Of a stretch of DNA of 64,000 bases, positions 1,271 to 37,900 are shown one piece after another. The position numbers and the translations under genes were made by a program. The notes beneath the pieces are model-generated. The model did not search any database. It worked only from the letters and a program-made list of their open reading frames with translations, and was not told where the DNA came from. Source of the stretch: Vermamoeba vermiformis. Lineage: Eukaryota. Where the stretch lies: NCBI GenBank assembly GCA_045837725.1, contig JBEWZL010000272.1, positions 186,001 through 250,000 on the forward strand. Direction: 5' to 3'. Position 1 is the first letter of the stretch, and each line of letters opens with the position of its first letter.

Positions 1271-1682
1271 GCACATGTGTTCTGTTGGTATGCATTCAAG
1301 CTACTCAATGGTAAGGCACTCATATGTTAAACTTTTTACGATGTTATCTTCTGCTCTGACTAAATGTTGGTTGCAAAATAGCGGGTGCGGATCCAACGAT
1401 CCGAAACAACAAAGCTGAAACACCGCTTGATTTCGTTCCTGAACTCTTAGAATACTGCAAAGATATCTATCCGACATTGAATGGAAATAATGCGCACAAT
1501 ATTTTGCAACTCTGTATAATTCTGTATGAGATGGAACACACTGGCAGAAAAAATAAAGAAGCACGCGCACTCCGTCAACAAATCAAAAGACAAAGCTTTA
1601 GAACTTTAATTTTTAGTATGGCAGGAATTATTAACGACCAACAATGGAAGCAACGAAAGTCGAGTTGGTGGACGACATCTGG
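1271..1682 (+). repeat. Copy 1 of a ~410-bp segmental duplication (copy 2 at 6483-6901): orphan last exons of an F-box/ankyrin paralog, the intergenic spacer and the first 13 codons of the next gene
   Basis: Near-identical by eye to 6483-6901 with a few indels. Encodes VFCWYAFKLL|GADPTIRNNKAETPLDFVPEL with no upstream gene body. Confidence 0.9.
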
Positions 1683-4600
1683 ATTTACATTTTCAACTTC
1701 CTGTCGCTGTATGAAAAAGCCAAATTGTCCCAGGTAAATAATTGTTATCGATGTATTAGTAAATAATAATTGACTTTTTTGTTTCGAATAAGCAGAAATT
1801 ATTTTTGGTCGTTGAATCCACTTATGCGCTCATAATTAACCTTATTAAATTTGAAGCAGTCCGTATGTTATATTTATTAACAATAATAGAAAATTAGTAC
1901 GAAATTAATTCGGTATCAATAGATCTCGAAGAGGTTGCAATCTATATTGGCCAACCCTTCAACTTGGCCAGTCATCGAGATAGAAATAACAAAAAAGTCA
2001 TCTCCTCCGTTCCATGAGCGTCTCTTTTGGAATTTTTTCGCCAGGTGTTGCACATCTGTCGTTGATCTGAACCTCACCGTGCAGTATTCGTCGATACAAA
2101 AGTACATTAGCCAACCGAATGTACGAGCAATATAATTCGCTTATTTTTGAATTAATACTGATGTTTTTTTACCAGCACTTGCCCGCTTCTATGATCATGA
2201 ATCACATCTTTTCGATCAAAACTCTTCGTAGACTCAAAATCGATATGAGCGTTATGAAAAAATTGGATTCATTTAAATTGACAAAGCAGCCAGCGTGTCA
2301 AGATCTGCGACTGCTCAACTTGGAAGAGTTTGTCCCATTCGCTGATAATGAAACCGAGGCTCTGGTGTTTTCTGTGAGTATAATGTAGTTAAGCATAATA
2401 TTAATATATGAGTATTTTGCTGTTTTAATTAAGTTGTAACACGAAATGTCATTTTCGTAGGGACTTCCAAATTTGGAGGAGCTTTATTTGCCCCAGGTTA
2501 AAAATATCAGTAATTTGAGTCACTTAAAGAAGCTGAAGCGATTAAAAATTGCACAATCAACTTCTCACGAGCAAATCATAGATCAGATCCCGTCATTAAA
2601 ATACTTGCTCTGCGACCAAATAACCGCCAATGCAAATGACGTTTTCAGCAAGTACGTCTCCAAGTATCGAGAAACGCTGATAGTGAACGGAGCAGTATTT
2701 GAACGACTATTCGAACTGTCGTTGGATCAAGTCAAATTGTTGGCACCGCTCATCACTCCGTACAACTCGAACAAGCCTTATTTGACTTCACTTATGGAAC
2801 AAATATTTTATAACGAAGAGATACTTGAGTATTTGGTGAAAGAAGTAGGCTTGGATGTCAACGGAGAGTAAGTAACGGTTGCGGACCGGATCTGCAAAAC
2901 CGCTTATTTAAGCGTAATATCCTGCGGTATCTCGAAAAAATTAATATGCTTGGATATGACTGCTAGATACTAAATGAAATGTTTTAGGGATTTTCTGAAA
3001 TATCAGTATCGACCGCCTTGTACAGGAGCCAATGTATGTGCCGTTGATAATTTTGATTTTCACTAAAGTACCATCTTTTAGGACTATAAAAGTTACGTAA
3101 TTCCAACATTTTCCTATCCCATTGCTCCAACTATAATCAGCGGAGCAATCTCGAAGTTTTCAAAGTTGGTGGAGCTTGGTGCAAAACCAGATCCGGGCCA
3201 AAAAAGTTTGTTGAGTCATGTCGCAACACTTCCGTTATTACTCAAAATGCTCGAACTTGGTGCCGATCCAAATTTACCGGTTGATGATGCAGGCACTCCA
3301 GCGTTTATGGCGTTAATCAGCAGCATGCCAGGTAAAGATTAAAATTAATTAATAGAAATAACTAGTGCTAATGATGAATTTTAGATTCAACGGATCTCAT
3401 TTCAGCCCTTATCAAGGCCAATGTCGACATTAACTACGAAGATCCGAAGACAAATCAGACTCTTCTTGAGGTACGGACCAAAATCATACTGAATTAATGA
3501 ATTCGCGGAAATAACCTGAATAAATAGAGAGCAATCGTCTTCAAAAGAAATGAGGCCGTGAATGCATTATTGGCAGCAGGCGCAAAGATCGCAAAACAAT
3601 GCGTCACACCTCTCTTAACGAACATGCCAAGTACACTAGTACGCTATTATAATTATCTGAATGGAGTATTTGAAATGTCTAATGTTCATCTACTCAGTTC
3701 GCAGAGCTATTGAAATCTCAACGGATCAGTCCTGGCATGATCACGATGAACGACGCCGTCATTGCCATTCATGAAGGCTTAGCCCCCGATCTGTAAGTAC
3801 CGTTGAAGCTCATACCAAACCCAATTAATATTCTTTATTTGTAGGGCAGAATATTTTAAACAAAATAGAGACGTGCGCGATGAAAACGGATTGACGCTGC
3901 TGCATCGAGCAGTGTTGATTACTTCTAACATTAAAAAGAAGAGGCCTCTAATCGAAGGATTGAACAGACCAGAATTCACCAACTATCAACTTATTGGCTC
4001 TTCATTCGTAAAGAAACCCAGCAATTACGCGTCAGAAATACAGTCGTACTCGTCACCCTTGCAATTACCACAAACAGCCGTATTGCCCTTAGCCAATTCA
4101 AAGTTCGTATTTGCAAGCACAACGCCCTTGCAGCCTGTCGCAGATGTACCAGGATTCAACTTTTCCAATGTTCCGTTAGAGCTGCCCTCATTCTCATTCA
4201 GCAAACCAAACAAGTCAGATGATACTAAATCCAGTGCTATTAAGTCCTCTGGCTTCACTTTTTCGGGCATTCCATTGGAGCTGCCCTCAGTTGGCAGTCC
4301 GACAGCCGTGAATGAAACCAAATCGGGCACTACCCCGAAGTCGTCTGGATTCAGTTTCAACACAAACAGACCCCTAGAGCTGCCTTCTCTCTCGTTCAGT
4401 GAACCAAACAAGTCAGTGAACAGTCCCGCCAGTACGGCTTCGTCACTTGGAGGATTCGAGTTTGCAACTGGTCCACTATCATTTGGCGAGAAAAAGTCCG
4501 TTGAGACCAAGCTTGATACTACTACAACTCCATCGAGCGCTACCTTTGGAACTAGCAACACCGATGCCCAACAACTGCCGTTGTCATTTGGCAATCCATC

Positions 4601-6736
4601 AAAGTTCACCTTCTCTTTCGGAGACAGTCAATTGGTATCATCGCCAAGCTTTGACTCTTTAACACATTCGAAGAATTCAGCTTCGCAACAACAGCCCAAG
4701 CCCAGGCCAACGATTGTTGCTGGCGTATCACCGGCGCCTTCTGGAAGCTTACGTGGCATTCGGCATTGGCTAGACAACTTTGACTCGCTAATTGAGCTGC
4801 TAAAAATTGACGTTGATGTCAGAGCTTCATTTGGCGAAACACTGCTGCTTCTAGCGTGCAAAGCCAAAGTTGATCAAAGCGCCAAGTTGAAATACGTTCA
4901 GTCGCTACTTCATCACGGAGCTGATCCGAATGCTTGCGTAAGTGAACCATCATTATGGCTACATTTAGAATAACATCGATGTTTAGGATAATAACAAATG
5001 GACGCCACTTCACGCGGCATGCTACTTGAGCGAATGGCCTGTCGTGTTTGAACTGCTCAAGTATGGAGCAAACATTAATGCACAAGACTCGCTTGGCATC
5101 ACACCACTCATGGCGGCACTCTACGGATTCAAACACAATCTTGAGTTCCTTTGCAATGAATTCGAAGACTATTTTGCAAAAGTACTGACGGAATACTCAG
5201 TTGACTTTTCGTTGACCGAGAAGACAACAAAACGAACACTTCTTCATCTTCTGTGCTGCGTTGCAGGACCTGACATCGTTGTGCCATTTGCTAAGCACAT
5301 GAACGTGAACGCAAGGTATGCTATCGATGAACGTTGTGACACTTTTGACACTTGATGACAGGGACGCGTCAGGCTTCACACCACTTCACTACGCAATCTT
5401 GTTCGCAAATGACCAACTGCTCGAACCATTGATAAAGTGTGGAGCAGATGTGAATGCACAAACAACATCGCTCAAACTCACGCGTAAGTTGAACTGACCA
5501 ATGGTCGCCTCTTGTTGCTTTTTACGAATTTCTTTTTAGCCTTAATGCTCTTCTTGAGTCTGTTCCTACCCAGTCCGTATGGATCATGCCTTGCCAATTA
5601 CAGCACTCTACTGCGCAGTCGATTCAGCTCCACCACCGTTGAAGTGTAAGTAACGCAATATAGACCACAAATGTTGTTCTAACGGACAGTGTAGCCCTTC
5701 ATCGTGGCCACGTATGCAAAAACCTGAATTCATCAACCCACCTTGGTACTCGACCACACCTTATCCTTGGTAAGTTTAAACGAGATAAAAGTAATTATTG
5801 CTAAACGTTATTAACAACAGGTGGCCTGCTACAGCGAAGTGCGGAGTAGTGATCGACATACTTCTGCCGAAATCAGATCTGACATTAAAAGACGTTGCGA
5901 ATAATAACGTGCTTCATTTGGTAAGTCAAAAACCAAACGCTAAAGTCAACTTTTGGTAATGTTACATACGATAGTTGGCCACGTGCGATACATACTACCA
6001 CACTTACCTCGCGAAATTTCCCGAACTAAGCCAGCTGCTGAGTCAATCGAACGATGACAAACTGCTGCCCGACATTCACCAGCCCATTTTTGACTTAAAT
6101 ACACAGCCAGAAGAAGTTGACTCGTTGGTAGCATGCGTGCGAAGGGTACGTTAGGACTGACTTTAACTGAAGGCTAGTGTTACTAACGCGATCTATTCAG
6201 ATTCTAGAAGACGCTAGACGTGTAAGTATCATAGCTAATTCGAAAGATTATGTTTTAATATGATTGCAACAGGCCTGTAAAAGCGATTTGCACGAGCGAT
6301 TTAACGAGCTTCTTGCACGAACAGGTACGTCAAAAGTACTTCTTTTGCTCCTGTCTTAACGTTTGTTAGACGTTAACTACGAGCGCGACCCACACGGCAA
6401 CACAGCACTGCACATTGCATGTCAGTTCTTTCATCTCGGCGTGCTGGACTCTCAACACGGCAAACTCGACAATGAACGTGAAGCACGTGTGTTCTGTTGG
6501 TATGCATTCAAGCTACTCGATGGTAAGGCACTCATATGTTAAACTTTTTACGATGTTATCTTCTGCTCTGACTAAATGTTGGTTGACTAGCGGGTGCGGA
6601 TCCAACGATCGGAAACAACAAAGCTGAAACAGCGCTTGATTTCGTTCCTGAACTCTTGGAATACTGCAAAGATATCTATCCGACATTGAATGGAAATAAT
6701 GAGCCAATATTTTTTGCACTCTGTAATTCTGTATGA
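1644..6736 (+). CDS. F-box - LRR - ankyrin protein with FG/FxF-repeat insert, copy A (multi-exon)
   Basis: Exon 1 MEATKVELVDDIWIYIFNFLSLYEKAKLSQ|ISKRLQSIL...W is an F-box. LRR-like LPNLEELYLPQVKNISNLSHLKKLKRLKI. Ankyrin motifs GADPN, DSLGITPLMAA, DASGFTPLHYA, DPHGNTALHIAC. FSF/FTF/SFG-rich region at ~4100-4630. The exons I traced splice in frame to TGA 6734-6736. Confidence 0.85.
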
Positions 6737-6901
6737 GATGGAACACATGGGCAGAAAAAATAAAGAAGCATGCCTAATTTTACACTCCTAACGTCAACAA
6801 ATCAAAAGACAAAGCTTTAGAACGTTAATTTTTAGTATGGCAGGAATTATTAACGACCAACAATGGAAGCAACGAAAGTCGAGTTGGTGGACGACATCTG
6901 G
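6483..6901 (+). repeat. Copy 2 of the ~410-bp segmental duplication (3' end of copy A, spacer, start of copy B)
   Basis: Matches 1271-1682; identity ends right after the ...GACGACATCTGG (DDIW) codons. Confidence 0.9.
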
Positions 6902-9900
6902 CGACGAGTTTTTGCTTTACTTCCGGTGACCCAAAGGGCTCGATGCACTTTGGTACGTAAAATTACAAATTAAAACTGTTTATCCTCGCGTAGTTTTACG
7001 ATCTGCTGAGTACTTATTAATTTAAAATTAATTTCTTAGTAATGTCGACTAACCAAATAATACCAATAAAATGCGACAAATATTAGCGTTTAATTTATAC
7101 TATTACCAAAAATTAAAATATTAAATTCAGGTGGCAAAAAAATGGCGCGATCTTATTTTGCATCCGCTTGTTTGGCGCTCTGTAGAAGTCTCTTTTAGCA
7201 ATTTTAAGCACATTTCCCGTACCCACGTAAAAATTGGCACAATTTATTACGAGAAAGGTGCCACCAAGAGCGCTTCCATCCAAATAGTGCGAGAGCAGCT
7301 ACGCACATCCGGTTTCTTTTCATTCTTCCCAAAGATCAGCTCTGCAATTGTGGACCTAAATATCAGTGTCTATATTTCCGAAGCCAACTACGCGGAGATT
7401 AAGCAATTGGACGCAATCTTCCAAATCCGCACTCTTCAACGATTCAAATGCAATTTTCTGTCAGATCCATCGACCCGCATAGATTTGTATTCTTATACTA
7501 CAACAATGGTGCCAGCATGCAAAGACTTGACGTTGCTCAACATGTCCCCTCACAATTGTGTGTCCATCGCTCCCGAGTCACGTCGTACTGTTTTCTCTGT
7601 ACGGTACTATCGTAATTGTATATCATATTGCTTATTTTGTACAAAATAGGGAATGCCTAATTTAGAAGAATTTTACGGAGGATACGGGGAACCATTTAGC
7701 GCGGATCAGATCGCAGACTTGAAGGCGCTGAAACGTCTTTATCTGATCAAGCTCACATCAAGCCCGCATCAAGTCATTGACGACTTGCCTAATTTGGAAT
7801 ATTTGATATTAAAGAACGAAGATAGCGTTGGCCGTTCACTGATGGAGTCGTTGGATCAACCTTCAGTTGGCGGACATCACTTGCTGAGAAAATACAAGAA
7901 CACGTATATCATCTTTGCAACTATATTCGATAGAGTGCACTTGTTGAATAGCGATCAATTGAACATTTTGAAGCCTTTATTCACGACCTACACCCTTGCT
8001 GGTCAAGCGTTTTTGAGCTCTATCGTGGCGCAAAGCGAGACATTCACGAACATCGTTCCATCATTTTTCATTAAAGAACTAGGCTACGATGTTAATGGAA
8101 GGTAAGTAAATTGAAAAGAGTCAATTGAAAAGTTGAATTGAATCAATTTTAATTTTTGCAGGGACATTCCGGAGTTCCCTTATCGACCTTCATTCGCTGA
8201 ATCAATCCTTGATGGCCTCGTAAGCGACAAATGCAAATTAAAAATCTTAAAGTAAAGTGCAATTACTAAGCTATTAATAGGACCAATTTGTGTCGCCTAT
8301 CGACGTCGCCGTTTGTTTTTCCAAATCATATGCCAAAGTCAAAGAATTGATTGAATTCGGGGCCGATGTTGATCCACCAGAGCATTCATTGCTCTATCGT
8401 CGTATCGAAGTCAATGAGGCACTGCTGCTACTACAACACGGAGCAGATCCGCATCGTATTGTGGACACCGATTGAACCCCGGCATACGCATACTTACTTC
8501 ATTCATTGTTGAACAGTTCAGGTATATATTATTATAGGAAATGATCACATGACCTAATTATTTTTAGATCCGTACTTGGTCGTTGAAGATCTAGGCAAAA
8601 AAGGCTGCGACTTTAATTACATAGTCCACGATTACACCTTACTAGACGTAATATATAACTACTTATTGATTTCTTCCGTAACTCAATATTCTTTTAATTA
8701 AGCACGCCTTCACTGCGGGATTCCCGAAAGTTGCAGAGTTAATGTTGGATTACGGAGCTAAGTGGGAATGGACCGATCGCGCCAATTTCTTCGTTCAAAA
8801 TAATACACAACAAGTATAATATATATATTTCTTTATATTAAGCTCGTAACTTACTGTGATTTAATATTATTATAGTTCCACGAGATGCTCAAGAAAGGCA
8901 AAGTTGATATCACGAACATGCCTTTGGACGCTGCTTTATTCTGTTGTGGTCACAATATGGCTTATTTATTGTAAGATATACGTGCAATATTGTAGCGATT
9001 CTAATGTTCACATCTCATGCGCTTAGGGTCGATTACTTCAAGGACAAAAGAGATTCTTGTAATCTACATGGATTGGGTCTGGCACATCTGATTGCGTTAA
9101 ATCCCCAAGGCTCGGAGCAGGTCGAGATTACCAAACCGAAGTGGAGATCAACGAAAAAATTTGATCGATGGGTCGTTGTTGCTGACACTGTCACACTGCC
9201 AAGTTTCAACTTCTCGTCGAATTCATCGACTTTCAATACAAGTGGCACAAATACATTGGCTGAAACCAAACCAGCTACGACTGGCTTTAATTTTTCAAAT
9301 CTCTCAATGCCGTCGTTTTCTTTTGGCTCCACAAATGGCTCAACCGCACCTTCAAACAACCCTGCTCAGAATCTCCCAGCGTTCTCGTTCAATTCAAATA
9401 GCGGTCCTCTTACTTTGCCAACGCCCTATTTAAGCGCAGCACCTCCAACTCCGAGCTGGAATTTCTCGTTGAAAAGCACGAACGAAACACCTGCACAGCC
9501 AACATCTTCATCGCCGCCGTTGTCTTTCACATTGCCTGTCACTAACGAACCCAAGTTCTCATTTGGCACCGCAATCCCACCGCTCGATAGTACAGCGGCG
9601 TATGTGCCTTCACCGGCGAAATTGCCACCGTCAATTTGGTTCGACTTTGATGCGAACAAAACTGAGGAAGAAAAACAAAAGATTACTAGTACTTCACCTT
9701 CAGAAGGCTATTTTTTCTTGCCTAATGCTTGCACTTGGTCACAAGACTTCACGGAAATCTTCATCAAGCAAGTCAAGATCGATCTCAATACTGTTAATGA
9801 CAATCAATACTCGCCCTTGCAGTTGGTGATTAAGTGCGACTTCAACAAAGCTGTTAAACAACGTCGTGCGTTATTATTGCTCGAACACGGAGCAGATCCA

Positions 9901-11576
9901 CACTATCAGGTGACTATCTTTCGCATATAAATATAAGAATAAGTACTAACGCATCTTCAGAACCCTTTAACTAAAGAGACGGTGTTATCTAAAGCATGCT
10001 ACTACGGCTTGTGGGACGTCGTTTTTGCATTGCTGGACAAGTACGAAGTGAGCCTCACAGTGACTGACTTGATGTTTGCCATACTCGGACACAAGCACAA
10101 CGATATTGATCCACAGACAGACTTCGTTCCGAACTTTAGCCGTTTGTTGACTAACTATTCGCACTTCGACGCAACTCGGGTGGCTTATCTTCTTGCGAGC
10201 TTAGGAATAGAAGAACTCATATGTCCATTATTGGATAAAATTTATGTCAATGCGAGGTACGTTGCAAAATATCGTAAAAATGACGTTTGACACTTTTGAC
10301 ACGTTGACACTTACGAAATTATTTGGCTTTTTGAAGTGCTCAATTGGCGTTTAAAATGACTTGTTTGACACTTTTGACACTTGATGACAGGGACGCGTCA
10401 GGCTTCACGCCACTTCACTACGCAATCATGTTCGGCAATGATCATCTGATCGAACCACTGATAAAGTGTGGAGCAGATGTGAATGCACAAACAACATCGC
10501 TCAAACTCACGCGTAAGCTGATCCAGTTCTCAGCTGTTTCTGACCCATTTTGACCTGTTTTTCTTCACAGCACTGATGCTACTATTGCACATCACAAATC
10601 CCAACTCACCGTACAAGTGCTACTTGCACCACTACGCCACTTCGCTGTTCGGCTCGTTCAGTGGCATGACCTCAATCAAAAGTGGAGCTCGTGCAGATCA
10701 ACCAAACATGTCACGTGCTCGACCATTCACGTAAGTTTAGCCGCTAGTTTCGAATGCACTAATACTGAGTAGCACGCGATTGAAAAATGTTTCTCAAATG
10801 ATAGAACTGTTGCGCTCAAAGTCAGATCTAAGTTTGACTGACCGATTCGACAACTCCGTTCAGCAACTCGTAAGTAGGCACACAGATATTGACTACTGAA
10901 TATTAAGATGTTACTATTAGCTCGACAATGGCCCCATAAACACATCTCTGCGCCAAGCAGACGAACATCCGCCGTTGCTTAAGTTCATTAAAAAGGTTTG
11001 TACTGCCCTGCTGATACCTACGTTAGACTGACGCTATGTCCTGCAGTTGTTTGAGAACACTCATGAGCTAGTTGATTGGATAGCAGTGATTGAATCGTAT
11101 CTAGAACCCAAAAATGAGAACAAGATTGATTTTACGTGTTTTGACATTTTTCTGGCTCCTCCTGCAGATGACGCTATTATTCACGCACGTGATGCACACG
11201 GCAACACACCACTTCACATTGCATGTCAGTTCTTTCACACCGGTGCTACTGACTCGATGTTTGCGTGCCTCGAAGATGAACACCAATCAGCTCCGTATTG
11301 TCTTGTTGCATTCATGCTCTTGGAACGTAAGTGATTGGTCTCATAGTGATTGTTTTGCTATCACTATCTGCGTGCTAAATTATTTGGTTTTTTTCAGATG
11401 GAGCAGATCCAACACTGAAAAACAACAAAGGTGAAACACCACTCGACTATGTTCCTCATCTGAAAGAACGATCAATGAATGAATACAAAAAGCTTCTCAA
11501 AAATGCGTCGGCAGCTATTAAGTATAACCTGAAACTTAACGAGAGCAAACATACAACTGGATTTCAATTCAATTAA
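6863..11576 (+). pseudogene. F-box - LRR - ankyrin - FG protein, copy B; one in-frame TGA at 8473-8475 (recent pseudogene, readthrough or base error)
   Basis: MEATKVELVDDIWRRVFALLPVTQRARCTL|VAKKWRDLILHPLVW. Exons are colinear with copy C. GADPHRIVDTD*TPAY aligns with copy A DDAGTPAF and copy C IDGQTSPAY. Downstream exons stay open to TAA 11574-11576. Confidence 0.7.
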
Positions 11577-11734
11577 AGAAGTTAAATTAATTGATCGGAT
11601 CCAGCGCTAAAAATAAATTCAATTCACAATTAGAAAAATCTAAGACAAACACGCGACGCACGTTGAAATGCATAATTTTGACAATTGCTTTATGTTCGTT
11701 TGTCCTTGTCGCACGGCAACTAATCTTTTCGCAA

Positions 11735-14700
11735 ATGGAGCTTGTGGATGACATCTGGCTCCGAATTTTTGGTCTGCTGCCAACTATCCAACGATCTAAA
11801 TGTATTTTAGTAAGTCGTGTACACTAGATATTAATTTTTGGGCCACGTATGCTCCTTATCATCGAAACGGCGTGGATCTTAATTTTTTCTGAATTTATTT
11901 ATTACACACGCTTTTCTGGCCTATACTAAAAATTTCTTAAGTGCATTCAATATTTAATTATCTAATTTTAAAATAATTTAAATAGGTCTCCAAAAAATGG
12001 CGCGATTTGTTGATGCTGCATCCAATTGTTTGGCAGACAGTCGAAGTATCCTTCGACAAACAAAATAACGCGCAGCATATTGGCCTCAAAATTGACGAGA
12101 ATCAATCTGAAACTGAAGCCGATCAGCTGGCTTCTGTGTCCCGCACAGACAACTTCTTTCAATTTTTCCACCAGATCTGCTCTTCAATAGTAGATTTAAA
12201 CTTAGAGGTAGATATGATGAGCACAAAGGAAAGCATGTCAAAAAATCTCGACGCAATCTTTCAAATCCGCTCGCTGCAACGTTTCAGATGCAAGTTCGTA
12301 AATAATGAAAAGACAATAAAGCTTGGCCCAGCAGCAGCAAGAACGTCAAAACAAGTTAATGAATATCATACCACGGCAGTACCAGCGTGCAAGGATTTGA
12401 AGATACTGAACCTCGAGTTTGCCAAAGGACTATTTATTTATCCAAAAGTGTATCAGATCCTTTTCTCGGTAAGCAAAAATTATCATGCTCCGCTTATTAT
12501 TAACGCAAAACACAGAACTTGCCTAATTTGGAAGAGTTCTATCCTGTCGCAGGAATGCCTTTTGATCCGAATCTGTTCTCTAACACCCCAAAACTCAAAC
12601 GTCTTAGTCTCTGTACTTTTGCATATGTTAGCGATGCAAAAAAGTTTATCGACGCATGTCCTAGTCTGGAATACCTAATCTTACGAGAAGAGAATGTATT
12701 GGATCAAACCGAGTTGGCTACGTTGGATCTCGTCGGCTGCAGCAAACTCAGGAAATATAAGAACACTTATATCGTCTTTGCAACCATATTTAACGATATA
12801 AGTGCGTTATTGAACGATCAACTGAACATCTTGAAGCCACTTTTCACTCCCTACACAACCTTTGATCAGCCGTACTTGACCTGCGTAGTCGCTCAGAGCA
12901 AAATGTTTCTTAGCTATGCATTGAATTTCCTGGTAAATGAAATGCATTACGATATCAACGGAAGGTACGTAAGTCTTTTTTAACGAAGGAAAACGATCTG
13001 ACTATTTTTTCAGAGACATTCCAGATTTTCATTATCGCCCTTCATTTTGCTTTTTAAACCCAGATAAAAACGTGAGTAATATTACCATTACTATAAAAAT
13101 TTAGCTAAACGCATCCAACTCTAGCGAGTGTTTCCTATTGAAGAGGCAGTTGCAGATCCAGAAAAATTAAGGGTACTGCTTGAATACGGTGCTCAAATAG
13201 AGATACCAGAGACTTCACTATTCGTTCACGCCCAAAAAATCGAATCCGCATTGATGTTGCTTGAAAAAGGAGCGGATCCTAACAGAATTATAACCATCGA
13301 TGGTCAGACATCTCCTGCTTATATTACCTTGCTTTATGCTCTCAACTGGGATGGCAAAGGTACTGTTATTATACTAATTCACCGGTTCTAATGCCAGTTT
13401 ACATCAGATCCGTACTTGGTCTTTCAAGAACTCGGCAAGCGTGGATGTGACTTTAACAAAGCAGCATGGAAATCGCCACTAAACCAAGAAGAAAGCTCAT
13501 TACTAGATGTAATGCTTATGTTTATTTAAACTGAGTGTATTAACTCTTTTGGGCAGGAACAAATTCGAACACAAAATGTTCGGGCCATTGAAGCGATGTT
13601 GGACTATGGTGCTGAATGGCGATGGACGAGACATGCTATTGAATTCGGACATAAATATCCTCAAAAGGTAATGATTTATATTAAATTTCTTGCCTATCCT
13701 AAGTATGTTCTAACGACTTTATTTTATCAGCTTGAAACGCTCTTGAATAAAGGCAAAATTGACGTTAAAGGCATGCCAATTACTCTGGCCTTGCTCTTGT
13801 GTGAAAAGAATATGGCTCCGTTACTGTTAGTACTTATTATTATACTGCTAATGTTTACTAATTACTTTTGACATCGATCAGGATCGAGTCTTTCAAAGCC
13901 AATCGAGATTACCGCAATGCAAATGGCCTAAGTCTAGCTCATTTGGTTACACTAATACCGCCATCTGGCGTTCCAAACAAACAAGTTCCTCCGCCAAAAA
14001 AGAAGTCGTTGACGAAGTTTGACCGATGGATCGAAGACACTCCCAAACCTTCTTCCTTGACAGGCTTTAGCTTTTCAAATGAGTTAAACCCCGCATTTTC
14101 GTTTACTCCTGTAACTACAAAGCCCACAGTAGACGCAAGCACGAAGAACGCTAAATCTGGATCTGGATCTGGATTCAGTTTTTCGACCTCAACGCCATCC
14201 TTCTCGTTCAATTCATCAACATTTACTTCACCCAATGCGCCACTGCCATCAGGTTTCTCATTTGGCAACAATCAATCAACGACACAACCGTTGTCTACCC
14301 CGTCTATCACGCTGCCGGATCCAGCTAACACGTTTAGTTCAAAGACGGACACACCAGCTAAGAGTGCGAGCCCAGCGTTCTCATTCACATCGTCAATACC
14401 CCCTCCCAATCATGTTGCCTCACTCAGTTTCAACACTGCTCCAACATCGAACACGAGCTCGGCCTTTTCCTTTAGTTCAAGCAGCTCTCAGCCTAGTAAC
14501 ACGCCGAACCCAACATTTTCGTTCTCAACGCCATCACCTTCGAATGCTACGCCAAACAGTTCTGCCACACCTGAGCCTCAAACCAGTGTCCCAAAGTTCT
14601 CGTTCACCTCGTCAATACCGTTGCCAAATCCGAATGCTGCCTTCTCTTTCAGCAACAACTTGCCATCAAACACTACCAGCCCGACATCTCCATTCGCATC

Positions 14701-16801
14701 GTCAATTACCCTCCCCAGTCTAAGCACTGCATTTGGCGCTCCATCAGTGCAACTGCCACCCTTGCCATCGTTCAACTTTTCATCGGACAAGACGGCTGAT
14801 AAGATGCAAGATAAAAGTGCTCCTGTCTTCTCTTTTGGAGGTATATCAGCCCTAACAAAGACTGAAGAAACGAAGAAATACGATTGGTCACGTGACTTGA
14901 CCGAAATCTTCATCAAAGAAGTGAACATCGATCTTAACGCAAAAACGAATAGAGGCGACACTCCGTTACATATTTTGATGAAAATTCAAACCGATTCATT
15001 TGTCAAATTGCTACGTGCGATTGTACTGATAGAACACGGTGCAGATCCACTTGCAAAAGTAAGTCTTTTTCGGTTTGACTTAAGTAAGATGCTAATAACT
15101 ATAGAATGATACTCAAATGTCAGTATTATCAACGGCATGTCAACACGGCGTGTGGGAGGTCGTTTTCATGTTGCTGGACAAGTACAACGCGAACATCAAT
15201 GATCGATGTACCAACGGCAATACACCACTGATGTTTGCCATTTATGGACACAAACACAACGACATTGTTCCGCAAGACGAATTCGATGTTAATTTCACAA
15301 GACTGTTGACAAAATATCCCGTCGACTTTTCGATCCGCGATGTAAGTTCAGGACTACAAACTCTAGGTGAAGTCGTATTAAATTGTTTCCTTATTAGGAG
15401 TACGGTCGATCATTGATACATCTACTTGCAAGCCTGGGTGAAAAGGAACTGCTAACTCCTTATTTGGACAAGATGGATGTCAACGCGAGGTTCGTACTGG
15501 AAAGACAATTTGACGTGTGACACTTTGACACTTACGAAATTATTTGGCTTTTTGAAGTGCTCAATTGGCGTTTAAAATGACTTGTTTGACACTTTTGACA
15601 CTTTGACAGGGACGTTTCAGGCTTCACGCCACTTCACTACGCAATCATGTTCGGCAATGACCATCTGATCGAACCACTGATAAAGTGTGGAGCAGATGTG
15701 AATGCACAAACAATATCACTCAAACTCACACGTAAGCTGATCCAGTTCTCAGGTGTTTCTGACTTATTTTCTTTTCAGCCCTGATGCTACTATTGCACAT
15801 CACAAATCCCAACTCGCCGTACAAGTGCTACTTGCACCACTACGCGACTGCATTCTTCGGCTCGTTCAGTGGCATGACCTCAATCAAAAGTGGAGCTCGT
15901 GTAGATCAACCAAACGTGTCACGTGCTCGCCCATTCACGTAAGTGTACTTAATGTTATTGACATTGATACATTGAGCTAAATGCACCTTCAGCACACGAT
16001 TGAGAAACGTTCCTGAGACGATTGAACTGTTGCGCTCAAAGTCAGATCTAAGTTTGACTGATCGATTCGACAACTCCGTTCAGCAACTCGTAAGTAAAAT
16101 AATTAATATTTGTCGTTTTCTATTCACTAAATTGACCTTATAGCTTGATAATCGACTCGCTAAATCAACACCGAATCTCATTAACGACGACGGGGATCAT
16201 TCGTTCATGAAGTTCCTGAAAAAGGTTTGTGCAATATAATATGCTTTATGTAATTGCCTTATTAAACTAATGTCTCTGTAGCTGTTCCAAAACACTCACG
16301 AAACTGACGGAGATTGGCTGGCCATGCTCGAAGAATATCTTGCGAAGAAAGGTATACATAACGTCGTTTCATTTCACAAGCATCGAATTAACTCGTTTTT
16401 TCGTTCAGACGACACTATTATTCACGCACGTGATGCACACGGCAACACACCACTTCACATTGCGTGCCAGTTCTTTCACATGGGTGTTGCTGACTCGATG
16501 TTTGCGTGCCTGGAAGATGAACACCAATCAGCTCCGTATTGTCTTGTTGCATTCATGCTCTTGGAACGTAAGTGATTGGTCTCATAGTGATCGCTTTACT
16601 CACTATCACTACGTGCTAAATAATTGTTTTTTTTCAGATGGAGCAGATCCAACACTGAAAAACAACAAAGGTGAAACACCACTCGACTACGTTCCTAATC
16701 TGAAAGAACTATCGATGAAGATGTACGAACGAGCATTAAAGGATACCAAAGAGATGATTGAACGTAACCTGAAATGCAGATCCAGTTTTATGTTAAACTA
16801 A
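11735..16801 (+). CDS. F-box - LRR - ankyrin protein with FG/FxF-repeat insert, copy C (multi-exon)
   Basis: MELVDDIWLRIFGLLPTIQRSKCIL|VSKKWRDLLMLHPIVW F-box. LRR PNLEEF..TPKLKRLSL..CPSLEYLIL. Ankyrins NRGDTPLH, TNGNTPLMFA, DAHGNTPLHIAC, NNKGETPLD. Longest FSF-rich insert of the three (~14060-14840). Confidence 0.87.
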
Positions 16802-16961
16802 TAAACATAATTGGTATTTATCCCGACGGGAAAAACGCTTCGGACCTCTTTCGAAAAATCCGAATTTTAATTTTCCGGATCTATTTTTAGGTGATTATTT
16901 TTAGCTTTGTGTCACAGATTGATGCGAGATTAATTTAATTTAAATTGAAAGAGAATACAAC

Positions 16962-17920
16962 ATGAGCCAAGAGTGGAGCGAAGCAGCACATTATTATGAT
17001 TATTTTGGTCAGTTCACTAAGCAATTTGCTGTGCGAACGGTGGATCTGGTCGAAAATGAAATTGAAAAGGAGCGATTTACTGGCCAAATTAATATCCTAG
17101 ACGTTGCTTGTGGCACTGGCAACGTGTCTTTAGCATTTTTAAAGCGAATGCCGCAAAAAGTAAATGTTTTGGCCGTCGATCTGTCAGAACAAATGGTGAA
17201 TATTGCCGAGCAAAAAATTCTGGCTTTAAATGCAGCCAATGCCTCGACTAAAGTTATGGACGGTCAAGTATGATATAATTGTATTTTTATTTAATTTATT
17301 TATCGATTTTCTTGCAGGCTCTTTCCCTTGACAGCGATAGTTTTGATGTATGCACGAATCTGTTCAGCATAATGTACTTTCCCGATCGAGCAAAGGGCTT
17401 CCAGTATGTACTTATACTTCCGATAATTCTCATAATTAATGTAATTAGTGAAATGTTTCGGGTACTGAAACCAGAAGGAATGGTGATCTTGGGTACATGG
17501 CACGCAATCCAAACAGTAGATATTGGCCGAGCTATAGCAAAATTTTATAATGCATCTCATAATCCAGATTTGGACCGAGTTCTTGCGCTTGCGGATCGAA
17601 GTTTAATTACGAAGGTAAATTTCAAATTCCGATTTAATTGATCCGCCGAGAAACTCAAATTCACCTTTCTATTTTAGGAAATGACCGACGCTGGATTCCG
17701 AGATATTGTCATCGAAAGAACAATTGTCTATTGGGTTATCAACGATAAATCCGTTTTTGAGAAGGTGATCGTGCATACGCCACTCTTTTCGCACGAACAC
17801 GATAGAGAAAAGTTAGCCAAGGATATGCCTGATATATTAGAGACCGTAATACCAAACTATAAGACCATTTCGACGTTCCAATTGAAATGTGTGGCAAACA
17901 TGGCTTATGGATTTAAATAA
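16962..17920 (+). CDS. Class I SAM-dependent methyltransferase (UbiE/COQ5-like)
   Basis: ILDVACGTG motif I, AVDLSEQM, DSFD..., MFRVLKPEG across 4 exons. Confidence 0.9.
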
Positions 17921-18066: not shown

Positions 18067-20497
18067 TTAAAATGAAACTCCAACAGGCACGCTAACGGCA
18101 GCATTTTGAATATTCTCGATGTTTTCGTTATTAGCAGCAACCTTTTGTTTCTTGGCAGCAGGCTCTGAAGCAGATGCGTCTTCGAGCTTTCGTTTCTTAA
18201 TCAAGGTAGCAATGCTAGGCTTAGTAGTTGGTCTAGCGACAGCCAAAGGTGCTTTAGCGGCTGTCGTAGAAGTAGACTTGGTAATAGCAGGCTTAGTAGT
18301 AGCAGTGGTTGAAGTCTTTGTAACGGATGTGGATGTTGCGGCAGGCTTGGTGACAACAGTGGTAGGCTTAGGAATTAATGACTGTCGAGGAGCAGCTGCT
18401 TTAGTAGTTGCAACCTTAGGTGCTTCAGGCTTAGCTTCAACCTTGGGTGCTTCAACTTTTTCGGATGTGGTTTCAGTCTTAGTTGCGGGTTCAGCTGGTT
18501 TGCTCTCTGCTTGAGCGGCCTTAGCAGCAGCCTGTTGCTTCAACGAGGCAGCAGTTATAGGCTTAACAATGTTTGACTTGGCGGGCAAACCAGATGCGAT
18601 CTTTGACACGGCATTAGTAGGCTTGGTAACCGTTGATGGACGAGAAGGAACCAATGACTGTCTTGAAACAGGCTTAGTAATCATTGAAGGACGGCTAGCA
18701 ACAGGCTTTGTGACTGTCTTGGTAGCGGATGTAGCAGCAGATGTGGGGAGCAAACTGCGTCGGGAGTCGATCTTGCTTTGAGCAACAACAGGCTTAGTAA
18801 CAGTTGAAGCAACACGTGATGAAGCAGTAGCAATTGAAGCACGAGGCTTGGCTTGAGTGGCAGATCCAGCGTCCTTAATGTTGCTCAAGTTCTTCGTTCC
18901 AAGAACGTAGTCACCATTACTAGCGGTAGATGCCTTAGTAGCAGCAGTAGTAGTCTTGGTCACACCAGTCTTGCTTTGAGTCTTAACAGCAGGGTTTAGC
19001 AGTGTTTGAAACCTTCGCGTTATTCACTGCAGCGGATGCGGCAGATGTGAAGGAAGATTTGACCGCAGAAAAGCCAAACTTGGATTGAACACCGCGAGAA
19101 GTGCCTGAAGGTGTAGCTGGAACAACCTTTTCGACTTTAGGATTGAATTCGAAGCCAGTTTGACCAGGAGCAAGTTTAACTTCTTCCTTCGGCTTGACCA
19201 GATGGGCTACAAACTCATCAAAAGTTTCAGGAATAGGCTTGCCTCGATTAAGCATAGAAGGCGCCTTACTATAAGAGAAGAGTTTAGACTAAAGAAGCTT
19301 ATTCAAGATCAGATCGAGCCAACTTACGAAATGAGCTGTTGTTGCTGGATGCGTTCCTTCTTGCGCTCGAGGAACTTGTCAATGTCTTCCTCGTTAAGAG
19401 GAATTTCGTTGGCCTCAGCAGAAGCTTCAATCTCGCTCCAAGTCAATGAAGATTTCTTCTTGGGCGTATCAATCGAACTAGTAATAAGCAACGATTAGCT
19501 TCAAATACTATTATACTTATATATAATATGTCATGTACGTACTCGTCAATCTTAGGCAATTCGGTGGGCTTAGTGGTGCGCTTGATAACGGAAATCTTGT
19601 CGACAACCATTTCAAGAGCCTTTCGTTTCTCGCCAAGAATAGCACTACGAAGGATGTTAATATAATGTAAACATGTCATGAATCAACTATTAAATTAAAT
19701 GATTCACAAGATTCGAAACGGCTATAAGAAGGATTTGCTTACATCTTTTTGTTCTTTGACTTTTGTTCGTGGTTCTTTCTAATACCATCGACTCTCTTCT
19801 TAGTACGAGGAGTCATCGGTGCCTTAGCAGCGGGTTGCATTTCAGAATAGGGAAGTAAAATGGGAGCATTAGGATCTGTTTCAGTTTTTCTGAAATATGC
19901 AACCATGTTAGAACGACCTCGATCCTTGTTAACATCATTAACTTACACCTCGTATGGTGGGAACTCGATCTTAGGCACGGGTGCTTGATTGACTTCGATA
20001 GGAGCCTCAGTAACGGTAGACTCGATCTCCATCTTGCTTTCCGATCGTTCTTCAGATTTTTGTTCCTCGACTTCAGAAGCAGGCTCCGATTCCATAACGC
20101 TAGTCTCTTCCTTGCGTTCCTCGACGGCGCTCTCTTCTTCCTTCTGTTCAGGAACGATGTCCATTGTTTCAACTTCAGATTCTGCCGCAGATTCAGCAAC
20201 AGATTCAGAGACAGAAGAAGGCTCAATCTGCGAACTCTCTTCAACCTCTGATTTATCCTCATCTTTCGATTCTTCTTTGGCACCGGTCAAATGCTCTTCA
20301 TGATATTTACGAAGCTTCTCCTTCATTTTATCGGTCTAAAACCGCAAAATATATCAGTAAATAATTCAAAATTGTCTTGAAATATTATTATTAATTACCT
20401 TTAAGTTGGCTCTGATGCCAAACTTCTTGCAAAGAGCTTGAATGTCGGATCTCGACATGTTCTCGAGCTCATCCACATTAAAATACAAATCCTCCAT
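18067..20497 (-). CDS. SAP/HeH-like N-terminal domain protein with an acidic segment and a long Lys/Ala/Thr/Pro-rich basic tail (NuSAP-like, putative microtubule/chromatin binder); apparent +1 indel at ~18993
   Basis: N-terminus ELENMSRSDIQALCKKFGIRANLK resembles the NuSAP/SAP N-terminal motif. Repeated SRQSL/TKP motifs and an NLS-like KKRKL...KKQK. Removing one G at 18992-18994 joins ORFs 18983-19255 and 18067-18963. Confidence 0.65.
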
Positions 20498-21349: not shown

Positions 21350-21423
21350 GGCCGTTTAGCTCAGTTGGTTAGAGCATCGTGCTAATAACGCGAGGGTCCC
21401 AGGTTCGATCCCTGGAATGGCCA
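21350..21423 (+). tRNA. tRNA-Ile, anticodon AAT
   Basis: GGCCGTT/AATGGCC acceptor stem, D-arm AGCTCAGTTGGTTAGAGC, anticodon loop CTAATAA, T-arm GGTTCGATCC, followed by a poly-T Pol III terminator. Confidence 0.97.
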
Positions 21424-34915: not shown

Positions 34916-37900
34916 ATGGCACAAAGTAAAATTACGTAAGTAGTTTAAGGTAATATTTGCCGAGCTAATGCGTAATTGAACGCAGATCTTTCTTTGGAGG
35001 AGGAAAAAAGCCCGCCATTAAAGAGGAAAATAATACAAAACCGCTAGAAATTAAATCTGACCCAGAGGGTAAATATTCGAACGGTATACCTCAGTATTAA
35101 TTATTTCAGACGCTGAAAATAAAGTTGGCAGCACGTCACCAAAAAGAAAGGCAGATCCGACAACATCCTCACTTGCAGAGGTAAAATCTAAATATGAATA
35201 ATTAATAAAATTAATAAATTGTTTAGCCACCGAGTAAGAAGCAAAAAACAGGTACGAGATCAATATAAAAATGTGCTCCAGTTACTGCACCAATCTGTTG
35301 AAATATGCAATACAAATAATAATAATAATGAAATAGAATCGAAAGCACGAGGAATATTGACGTCGGATCCAAATTTTCCCGATCGCGAACCTGTTTATGG
35401 ACCTGTCCTGGATGCGTGGTGGCCTGAGGGCTCAAGGTATGAACCAATACGATTGATTAGCGTTGTTAAGCATATTATAGTGTCCCTTATATTCATCTGA
35501 GCCGCACATTTCAAGAGCTGGAAAAACATACGAAAAGGTAAGATCTAATCATGTCTGACATTTACTCGATTACTAACACTATTATTATCATAGAACTACT
35601 ATTTTGGAGCTGTTAACATTAATGTTCCTGCCTGTATTGAAATACTCGCCTGACGACTTCTTGTCCGTATTCTACTTGTGCGTGCATAAAGTACGTACTT
35701 TCGGTTGCCTTGTAATTTCCTTATATGGAAATATTTAACATTATTTTAATGTAGGTGGCACCTGTATGGGAAGGAGTAGAGTTAGGCGTTGGAGATTCAA
35801 TTCTGTTCAGCGCTATTGCCGAGGTAACTGGTCGGTCAACAGCGGAGCTGAGAAAAGATTTTGTAGCCCTGGGAGATTTAGGCGACGTTGCACAAGTACG
35901 TTTTACGAGCCAATTACACCATTTAAGGCTATAATAACCATATTTGTGCTTAGAAAAGTCGAAGTCATCAAAAAACAATGTTCACACCAAAACCTCTTTC
36001 GGTGCCACAAGTCTTTGCAGCGATGAAAGAAATAGCGTTCATGAAAGGCAATTCCGTACGTTATTAATATAGTCGAAAAATAATAGGGACTATAATTTAA
36101 TGAAGACTATAGTCACAAAAGCAAAAGAAAGATAAAATGAAAGGATTGCTCAGCAGTTGCCGTGAGGACGAAGCGAAGTTCATTTTCAGAACTCTTAGTG
36201 TACGTATATAAGTACGATATAATAGGAACAATAGTACGAACGTAAAATAGGGCAAATTACGAGTACGCATGTTAGAACGAACACTCATCGCTGCGCTAGC
36301 AAATGCATTGTATTATACGCAGAATGAGAGTGCATACCAGCAATTTCGTGCAATTGTTTCTCAAGGCAGTACGTATTTCGTTACTCACTTATTATACGAA
36401 TTATTAATTTTAAATTTTTTCTGTGCAGAGGCTGCCGATCTTATGGAGGTCATTGAAATTGACGATGATGAAGACCTCATTCTTCAGCCTAAGAAAGTTA
36501 AGAAGGCGAGCAAGACGGGTGCAAAAGAGAGCGAAGAATTGAAAGAAAAACTCCGCTGGGCTCAAGAAATATTACGCGTCGTGTTCAATGAAATGCCTTG
36601 CTACGACGAAATTATTCCGCTTTTGCTGGAGAAGAAATTATCCGAACTCGAAGGAAAATCATTCTTAAAGCCAGGTACGTAAAGTCTAACGCAAAAATTT
36701 CCTTTTATGGTAACTCACACGTGCATTATTTTTTAGGCTTCCCGTTGAAACCAATGTTAGCCAATAGAGCTGACGGTATTGCTGAAGTTCAAAAAAGATT
36801 CGGCGACAACGAATTCATTCTTGAATACAAATACGATGGTGAACGGGCACAGGTACTGAGGTTTATAAATTAATAACGAGACTAATACACTATCTTAGAT
36901 ACATAGAACAGATGATGGCTCAATTAAAATTTTCAGTCGTGCTTGTGAAGATCACACTAAGAAATTTCCCGACGTTTTGTTGATGCTGCCGGAAATTGTA
37001 AGTAATCTTTACTAATTACTTAGACCATACTAATTATTATGGTAGCTATTGTCTCCTGATACTACGTTCATCATTGACTGTGAAATCGTTGCAATTAAAG
37101 AAGACGATGCCGTTATGCCGCCAGCACCCGAAGCAGAAAAAATGACCGGGCCTGAAGAAGCGAAATCTTCTCGTGGATTTAACATTTTGCCGTTCCAATT
37201 GTTAGCTACAAGAGCACGAAAGGTTTGGGCAACTGGGACTGTTTCGGTTTTTGACGTTTTTATTGACACGTGTCATTTCGTAGGAAGTCAAGCTCGAAGA
37301 CATCAAGATTCGCGTGGCACTGTTTGCATTTGATATTTTATATCTCAATGGCCAGGTAACAAAATAACTTAATTTAATAGGCATGTAAATTAATACTAGT
37401 GTTCTTTTTGAAGTCGTTGATCAAGTTTCCGTTACATCAACGAAGAGAAAAGCTGTTGGAGAATTTTAAGATTGTTCCAGGGAAATTTCAGTTGGTCGAA
37501 TCGATCAGCAGCAAAAACAGCAGCGTGGAAGACATGAGCAACTTTTTGAAAAAAGCGATCGATGATAATTGCGAAGGCCTAATGTGCAAGATATTAGCTA
37601 CTGATGACGCGCACTATCAGCTCAGTAAGAGGTCGAATTCGTGGTTGAAAGTTAAAAAAGATTTTGCGGGCATGGTGGATTCGTTGGATCTGGTCGTGAT
37701 TGGCGGTTATTACGGACGAGGCAAACGAGTTGGAACATATGGATCTTACTTATTAGCTGTTTATGACAGCGACAACGATACATTTCAAGCTATTACTAAG
37801 GTACGTGCAAATGAGAGTTCGTTCACTGAACGCTACATTCATGAACGGCAAAAAAACTAATTTTTATCGATTTTAGTGCATGACTGGCTTTACGGACGAA

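Follow-up and report, generated by a model that had tools for sequence, protein, structure and literature searches.

A tandem array of three candidate F-box, leucine-rich-repeat and ankyrin protein genes with a disordered FxF-rich insert in Vermamoeba vermiformis

Introduction

Three tandemly arranged genes, here called g1, g2 and g3, occupy positions 1644 to 16801 of a 64,000-nucleotide stretch of the Vermamoeba vermiformis genome (GenBank assembly GCA_045837725.1, contig JBEWZL010000272.1, positions 186,001 to 250,000 of the forward strand; this whole stretch is referred to as the window, and all coordinates are counted from its first letter). Each of them is one transcription unit combining an F-box-like motif, a short leucine-rich-repeat (LRR) block, an ankyrin-type solenoid and a disordered insert rich in FxF motifs (two phenylalanines separated by one residue). 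We propose that they constitute a small, lineage-restricted family of candidate substrate receptors of Skp1-cullin-F-box (SCF) ubiquitin ligases, and both the four-part architecture and its assignment to SCF adaptors appear highly probable. Functionally, the nuclear pore barrier has at its core repeats of the phenylalanine-glycine (FG) type, which are rarely fused to enzymatic or adaptor modules. An earlier note, made from the letters of the window, had described three colinear multi-exon genes, each with an N-terminal F-box, a short LRR block, many ankyrin repeats and a Ser/Thr/Pro-rich segment studded with FSF, FTF and FNF motifs, had not recognised this architecture and had read the tandem expansion and divergence of the genes as signs of host-pathogen conflict. 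Here, we address how far gene models, profile searches, structure prediction, transcripts and substitution rates bear out the architecture, and which function may be proposed for it.

Gene models and transcripts

Genes were modelled by a dynamic programme for spliced open reading frames (ORFs) with codon and splice-site scores trained on long exons, and the models were curated by hand against the paralogues. Start and stop codons were placed exactly at the borders that the earlier note had given, and the four parts were recovered as real, colinear components of a single transcription unit in each gene:

1644 to 6736, forward strand: g1, 20 exons, 1282 amino acids, ORF intact, 19 of 19 introns GT..AG (45-189 nt)
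6863 to 11576, forward strand: g2, 16 exons, 1228 codons with one in-frame TGA, exon structure colinear with that of g3
11735 to 16801, forward strand: g3, 18 exons, 1321 amino acids, ORF intact, transcribed

The window has a G+C content of about 40%, and the genes are closely packed, being separated by spacers of only 126 nt (g1/g2) and 158 nt (g2/g3). Their introns are short (42-189 nt across the array), start with GT, mostly as GTAAGT or GTACGT, and end with TAG or CAG, and in the models a CTAAC-like or CTAAT-like motif is frequent close to the 3′ end. The reading frame of g2 is open across all 16 exons apart from the TGA at 8473-8475 in exon 5, at which place g3 reads GGT CAG and is one codon longer; the sole way to bypass it would use an intron of 466 nt whose donor, GTCAAT, is weak, and which is unlike all other introns of the array. 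Because of this codon g2 is a possible pseudogene; it may have become one recently, or the codon may reflect an assembly error or alternative splicing. Two further peculiarities belong to g1, namely a predicted 21-nt micro-exon (6201-6221) with strong splice sites on both sides and no counterpart in g2 or g3, and a C-terminus C-N-S-V (6722-6736) formally in the position of a CaaX box, an ending not kept in g2 and g3.

Transcript evidence was sought in run X5, consisting of contigs and presumed to be RNA, and in the raw-read RNA runs X13-X15, under the species label of the window. Contigs of X5 match g3 without a single differing letter and skip 5 of its 17 introns at GT..AG joints, which means that they stem from spliced RNA; one of the models' introns, 16352-16408, was adjusted to the X5 joint.

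13360-13407, 13509-13556, 16090-16143, 16225-16281 and 16352-16408, forward strand: g3 introns confirmed by X5 at GT..AG joints

Two more X5 contigs lie within the g3 exon that carries the FxF-rich insert (14238-14402 and 14615-14851). Runs X13-X15 placed merely 11, 13 and 30 reads, each from about 12.9 million records, and all placements are partial, with 95-99% identity, at three short conserved spots corresponding to the F-box start (1657-1693) and to the ankyrin core (5444-5481 and 10473-10510). The loose ends of these reads differ from the window sequence, and the reads are interpreted as transcripts of other expressed family members sharing the F-box start and the ankyrin core with g1-g3 rather than as products of g1-g3. 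Since the loose ends belong to other paralogues, X13-X15 are uninformative on the expression of the three genes.

The FxF-rich insert

In every gene one large exon (hereafter the FG exon) encodes a zone in which FxF motifs are much more numerous than in shuffled sequences of the same zone:

4041 to 4763, forward strand: FxF-rich disordered zone of g1 (amino acids 560-800), within exon 3845-4937; 8 FxF against a shuffle mean of 1.54, reached in 0 of 5000 shuffles
9154 to 9741, forward strand: FxF-rich zone of g2 (amino acids 575-770), within exon 9027-9909; 6 FxF against a shuffle mean of 1.52, reached in 9 of 5000 shuffles
14012 to 14899, forward strand: FxF-rich zone of g3 (amino acids 580-875), within exon 13882-15058; 12 FxF against a shuffle mean of 2.90, reached in 0 of 5000 shuffles

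The zones are 196-296 amino acids long and contain 41-50% Ser, Thr and Pro, 8-10% Phe and 10-14% charged residues; with 6-12 motifs per zone where 1.5-2.9 are expected, the Ser/Thr/Pro-rich segment with its FSF, FTF and FNF motifs is found as had been described. These three variants make up most of the motifs, in contexts such as PAFSFT, GFSFS, GFNFS, GFTFS and KFSFG, and by FxF count the three FG exons rank as the top three among the 93 ORFs of at least 100 amino acids in the window. The insert takes an equal position within the ankyrin solenoid of g1, g2 and g3, and both ends of the FG exon encode ankyrin-like helices in every gene. Because the same exon encodes these helices, the FxF segment is not skippable alone. 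An AlphaFold2 (AF2) model of the g3 FG exon, built on a shallow alignment of three rows, gives a predicted local distance difference test (pLDDT) below 50 and no secondary structure for residues 26-337, with helical flanks.

An origin of the motifs in recent slippage of repeats was rejected, since Tandem Repeats Finder detects in the FG exons only one 6-bp array of 3.3 copies. The motifs lack one-to-one alignment between paralogues, neither their number nor their position being conserved. Motif content rather than exact sequence is conserved among the paralogues, as all three keep the insert despite saturated synonymous divergence and the absence of a tandem repeat in DNA. Nucleoporins of the FG type likewise conserve motif content rather than exact sequence.

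A short basic patch immediately precedes each FxF zone: NIKKKRP in g1 (amino acids ~520-528, ~3925-3950), KPKWRSTKKF in g2 (amino acids ~570-580) and PPKKKSLTKF in g3 (amino acids ~570-580); these patches look like putative nuclear localisation signals. As an informal control for low-complexity coding, ORF 18067-19023 on the reverse strand encodes 318 amino acids rich in T, A, S, K and P, with no Pfam match and no FxF motif in its listed translation.

The N-terminal F-box-like motif

The F-box-like motif is split by intron 1, so that each half taken alone remains sub-threshold, and exons were scored singly against the Pfam cut-offs of 20.5 bits (PF00646) and 24.3 bits (PF12937):

1644 to 1733, forward strand: exon 1 of g1, F-box first half (PF00646 positions 4-26 of 43, E 0.042, 14.2 bits); second half from exon 2 at 1923
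6863 to 6952, forward strand: exon 1 of g2, F-box first half (PF00646 positions 4-26 of 43, E 0.052, 13.9 bits); second half from exon 2 at 7131
11735 to 11809, forward strand: exon 1 of g3 (25 amino acids), F-box first half by alignment; second half from 11986

The second half is matched in ORF 7125-7649, which runs over the start of g2 exon 2 (PF12937 positions 26-44 of 47, E 0.062, 13.5 bits), and the half-matches abut across intron 1. The string ELVDDIW..F..L is invariant across g1, g2 and g3, and both it and KKWR.L...P..W are kept in paralogues whose synonymous divergence is saturated. Inspected by eye, the motif joined from exons 1 and 2 agrees with the F-box consensus. Thus, an N-terminal F-box in g1-g3 is likely, not proven, as far as can be judged from sequence.

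Leucine-rich and ankyrin repeats

The F-box-like motif is followed directly by the LRR block, which is the order of FBXL-type proteins, and the LRR block in turn by the ankyrin-type solenoid:

2461 to 2867, forward strand: exon 4 of g1 (third coding block), LRR and a family-specific helical block running into the first ankyrin-like repeat (LRR_4, E 6.8e-4)
7650 to 8101, forward strand: exon 3 of g2, LRR and family-specific block (alignment; LRR_8, E 0.07)
12516 to 12964, forward strand: exon 3 of g3, LRR and family-specific block (AF2 model, Foldseek)
4987 to 5483, forward strand: clear ankyrin repeats of g1, exons 4987-5315 and 5362-5483 (Ank, E 2.5e-11 and 2.3e-7)
9961 to 10512, forward strand: ankyrin exons of g2, 9961-10256 and 10391-10512 (Ank_5, E 0.0011)
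15105 to 15731, forward strand: clear ankyrin repeats of g3, exons 15105-15341 and 15610-15731 (Ank_5, E 3.2e-10; Ank, E 4.6e-9)

The LRR_4 match corresponds to 20.3 bits, which is below the curated cut-off of 27. The AF2 model of exon 3, based on 12 sequences, has a pLDDT of 85.8 and shows beta-alpha repeats followed by helices; in a Foldseek search with this model the best rows are LRR proteins, all of them weak (E at least 0.08), with FBXL5 first at E 0.08. LRR proteins also account for 8 of the 19 matches to an exon-3 profile, over query positions 2-122. The sub-cut-off LRR_4 match, the LRR proteins among the profile matches and the beta-alpha repeats of the model agree in upholding the short LRR block. 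The end of exon 3 aligns with the ankyrin repeats of an unrelated protein, P0005.

Against the Ank cut-off of 21.1 bits, scores of 43.6 (g1, 4987-5313), 36.5 (g3, 15611-15730) and 31.2 (g1, 5363-5482) were obtained, and about 3-4 clear repeats per gene lie downstream of the FG zone; upstream of the zone the ankyrin-like repeats are degenerate (best Ank_4, E 0.0027). The C-terminal exons of g1-g3 gave ankyrin matches or none in Pfam scans.

Divergence and turnover in the array

In most domains the paralogues share 29-56% of their amino acids, in the FG zone 18-43%. Synonymous divergence (dS) is saturated along most of the genes, namely in 10 of 21 domain comparisons, for which dN/dS was undefined, and the ratio of nonsynonymous to synonymous divergence (dN/dS), where computable, ranges from 0.14 to 0.44. 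Because of this combination no sign of an arms race is seen: the divergence is old and under constraint, with no detectable arms race, and the host-pathogen conflict that had been deduced from tandem expansion and strong divergence is not borne out.

The history of the array is not uniform along its length. The C-terminal third of g2 and g3 (within 11047-16801) has dS of 0.37-0.48 as opposed to the saturated N-terminal two thirds, and is probably younger or gene-converted, giving the genes a mosaic history. In one ankyrin exon of 122 nt, however, these otherwise saturated paralogues agree at 90-95% of DNA positions (93-95% for the g2 exon against those of g1 and g3), and in each gene a repeated TTTGACACT motif lies in the intron in front of it (5316-5483, 10257-10512 and 15490-15731); taken together, they point to gene conversion or to a constrained nucleotide element. 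RNA reads assigned to other paralogues fall in this exon as well. A further trace of turnover is found at the 5′ border of g1:

1275 to 1686, forward strand: near-identical copy of 6487-6905 (DNA alignment; 82% identity in tblastn)

This copy spans a last exon and 3′ end of g1 type, the complete spacer between two genes and 42 nt from the start of the following coding sequence; the similarity ends sharply after GACGACATCTGG. It follows closely upon an ORF for a protein kinase (530-1123; Pkinase, E 4.4e-19) and may be what remains of a deleted fourth copy, or part of a kinase-ankyrin chimera.

Family size and relatives

An exhaustive HMMER profile search with the exon-3 alignment against 1.84 billion representative proteins (E up to 0.001) returned 19 proteins, comprising 9 exon-sized family fragments and 10 generic matches, the latter being LRR proteins in eight cases and an ankyrin protein and a repeat protein in one case each.

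P0001-P0004, P0008, P0010-P0012 and P0018: family fragments, 23-49% identical to g3 exon 3 (P0002, 97%)

P0001 is closely similar to g2 exon 3, and Pfam scans of six of the nine fragments matched no family. This search retrieved no full-length annotated relative, and searches of full-text papers brought up no protein combining an F-box with FG repeats and no family with the four-part architecture; within these sources, the architecture which the earlier note did not recognise has no described counterpart. Word-indexed protein searches with the exon-3 alignment against longer proteins, with the FG-exon alignment and with the ankyrin flank of the g3 FG exon returned nothing, blanks that are weak for the exon-3 and FG-exon queries because 8000 word-sharing candidates crowded both. 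A metagenome scan with a 12-row family alignment gave 320 pattern matches, none of which was confirmed.

Neighbouring genes

Immediately 3′ of g3, at 16944-17920 on the forward strand, lies a gene for a SAM-dependent methyltransferase (Methyltransf_25, E 8.2e-11), over which an X5 contig shows 2 differences in 291 nt. Elsewhere in the window a tRNA-Ile (AAT) gene is found at 21350-21423 and an exon of an ATP-dependent DNA ligase at 37381-37860 (DNA_ligase_A_M, E 9.4e-17).

Discussion

The arrangement of parts suggests how such proteins might work. The F-box would dock Skp1 and the cullin, and substrate binding would fall to the LRR and ankyrin surfaces. The FxF insert could serve as a multivalent module of FG type which binds nuclear transport receptors or dissolves in the FG phase of the pore, and might in this way bring the ligase to the nuclear transport machinery or take this protein of about 145 kDa through it. 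A role of the insert at transport receptors or in the pore is suggested here tentatively, and the proposal as a whole, an SCF-type receptor family equipped with an FG-type transport or pore module, is likewise put forward as a possibility that should be held with reserve. Its most specific version appears rather unlikely, namely an E3 adaptor with FG mimicry that resides in or crosses the pore barrier, or that marks receptor-cargo complexes or pore components for degradation.

Several known systems share one or more of these parts with g1-g3. FBXL-type SCF receptors (Skp2, FBXL5) resemble them in having an N-terminal F-box-like motif directly followed by LRR, and the FBXL5-SKP1 complex (6vcd_B) is the first, although weak, Foldseek row for the exon-3 model (E 0.08); unlike FBXL proteins, g1-g3 have only a few LRR, continued by a long ankyrin-type solenoid with a disordered FxF insert, and the profile search found no sequence-level relative among annotated proteins. 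Ankyrin repeats followed by a C-terminal F-box are characteristic of the poxvirus ANK/PRANC proteins. The combination of an F-box with substrate-binding ankyrin repeats also occurs in bacterial effectors, Legionella AnkB and Orientia Ank (PMC2790608, PMC5957444, PMC8406279, PMC11401901); AnkB has its F-box N-terminal, before the ankyrin repeats, in the same order as g1-g3, whereas Orientia Ank proteins carry it C-terminally, after the ankyrin repeats, as opposed to the motif of g1-g3 in exons 1-2. None of these short effector and viral proteins contains LRR or an FG-like insert, and g1-g3 differ from them in being intron-rich eukaryotic genes.

Nucleoporins with FxFG and FG repeats (Nsp1/Nup62, Nup153, Nup1/Nup2) appear similar to the insert, which is predicted to be disordered, is of low charge and rich in S, T, P and N and has regularly spaced FxF; its PAFSF, GFSFS, GFNFS and GFTFS motifs resemble the repeats of Nsp1 and Nup62. 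The inserts of g1-g3 differ from these nucleoporins in failing the Pfam FG models, in being mostly devoid of the G and in having no pore anchor, and they are flanked by ankyrin repeats and preceded by an F-box and LRR N-terminus. AGFG1/Hrb and the nematode GLH helicases are FG-repeat proteins that are not nucleoporins, and non-nucleoporin FG proteins resemble g1-g3 in the fusion of a folded functional domain to a disordered FG-type region outside the pore scaffold. To our knowledge, neither AGFG1 and GLH nor the non-nucleoporin FG proteins of yeast contain an F-box, LRR or ankyrin repeats.

A number of observations weigh against the proposal, and they are considered here along with the alternatives to which they lead. 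The chief rival leaves the F-box/LRR/ankyrin adaptors as they are and regards the insert as unrelated to nuclear transport, either as a flexible linker or as a carrier of other short linear motifs serving another partner, phosphorylation, glycosylation or condensate formation. This is about as probable as the proposal itself. It draws on the failure of Pfam Nucleoporin_FG and Nucleoporin_FG2 to match any FG exon at E up to 10 and on the scarcity of canonical FG dipeptides (2-4 per zone), most FxF being followed by S, N or T instead of the G of FxFG. The nearest cluster to the g3 FG zone in a language-model protein atlas is Nucleoporin_FG, a sub-threshold lead only, whose score of 0.78 lies in the range attained by shuffled proteins, and per-exon Pfam scans, which gave only F-box, LRR and ankyrin signals, detected no anchoring domain of the kinds that tie nucleoporins to the pore scaffold, such as a coiled coil, beta-propeller or autoproteolytic domain. 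The same view is favoured by the free number and position of FxF between paralogues, by the presence of S/T/P-rich low-complexity coding elsewhere in the window (ORF 18067-19023, reverse strand) and by the existence of FG-motif proteins that are not nucleoporins and have other roles, of which twelve are mentioned for yeast (PMC3774778). However, FxF pairing exceeds the shuffle expectation by far in all three old paralogues, the nearby low-complexity ORF shows no FxF in its listed translation, and a pure linker would need no retention of motifs across saturated dS. Support from conservation is softened by the low complexity of the FG-zone alignment, which makes the identity and dN/dS values soft, including those of the aligned columns of g2 and g3 (43% amino acid identity, dN/dS 0.21).

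It is less probable, and on balance improbable, that the N-terminal motif does not function as an F-box at all, so that the genes would encode ankyrin/LRR scaffolds without a ligase role, or that the array is largely decaying. Both F-box halves are below the Pfam cut-off, Pfam gave no match for g3 exon 1 or for the three exon-2 translations, and profile searches of the PDB with exon 1 and exon 2 produced chance-level matches and no F-box protein. With regard to decay, g2 carries the premature stop, and no transcripts of g1 or g2 were seen in X5, which does not cover them, or in X13-X15, so that transcript evidence exists for g3 only. On the other hand, the two half-matches occupy neighbouring profile positions within a single Pfam clan, with a combined score of about 27 bits, ELVDDIW..F..L and KKWR.L...P..W are conserved across saturated dS, g1 and g3 retain ORFs of 1282 and 1321 codons over 20 and 18 exons, and g3 is spliced and expressed.

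The explanation favoured by the earlier note, a decoy in which the insert mimics the FG repeats of the pore and traps capsids or pathogen factors for ubiquitylation within an array engaged in an arms race, is the least plausible: a tandem array of diverged paralogues (29-56% identity over most domains), the signs of turnover at 1275-1686 and at the g2 stop codon, and the adaptive evolution described for the large F-box families of nematodes and plants speak for it, but dN/dS is 0.14-0.44 where computable and dS saturated elsewhere with no positive selection detectable among three sequences, the family is small (9 fragment clusters), and no pathogen partner is known.

The novelty of g1-g3 consists in the combination of F-box, LRR, ankyrin repeats and FxF insert, the pairing of F-box and ankyrin repeats being already known from the bacterial effectors. 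If the insert is only a linker, the array would be an ordinary lineage-specific F-box/ankyrin expansion. If the proposed SCF-type receptors with an FG-type transport or pore module are real, they would offer a natural tool for studying how ubiquitylation is aimed at the pore or at transport receptors, and could show whether FG-like motifs suffice to bring a large protein into the barrier or across it.

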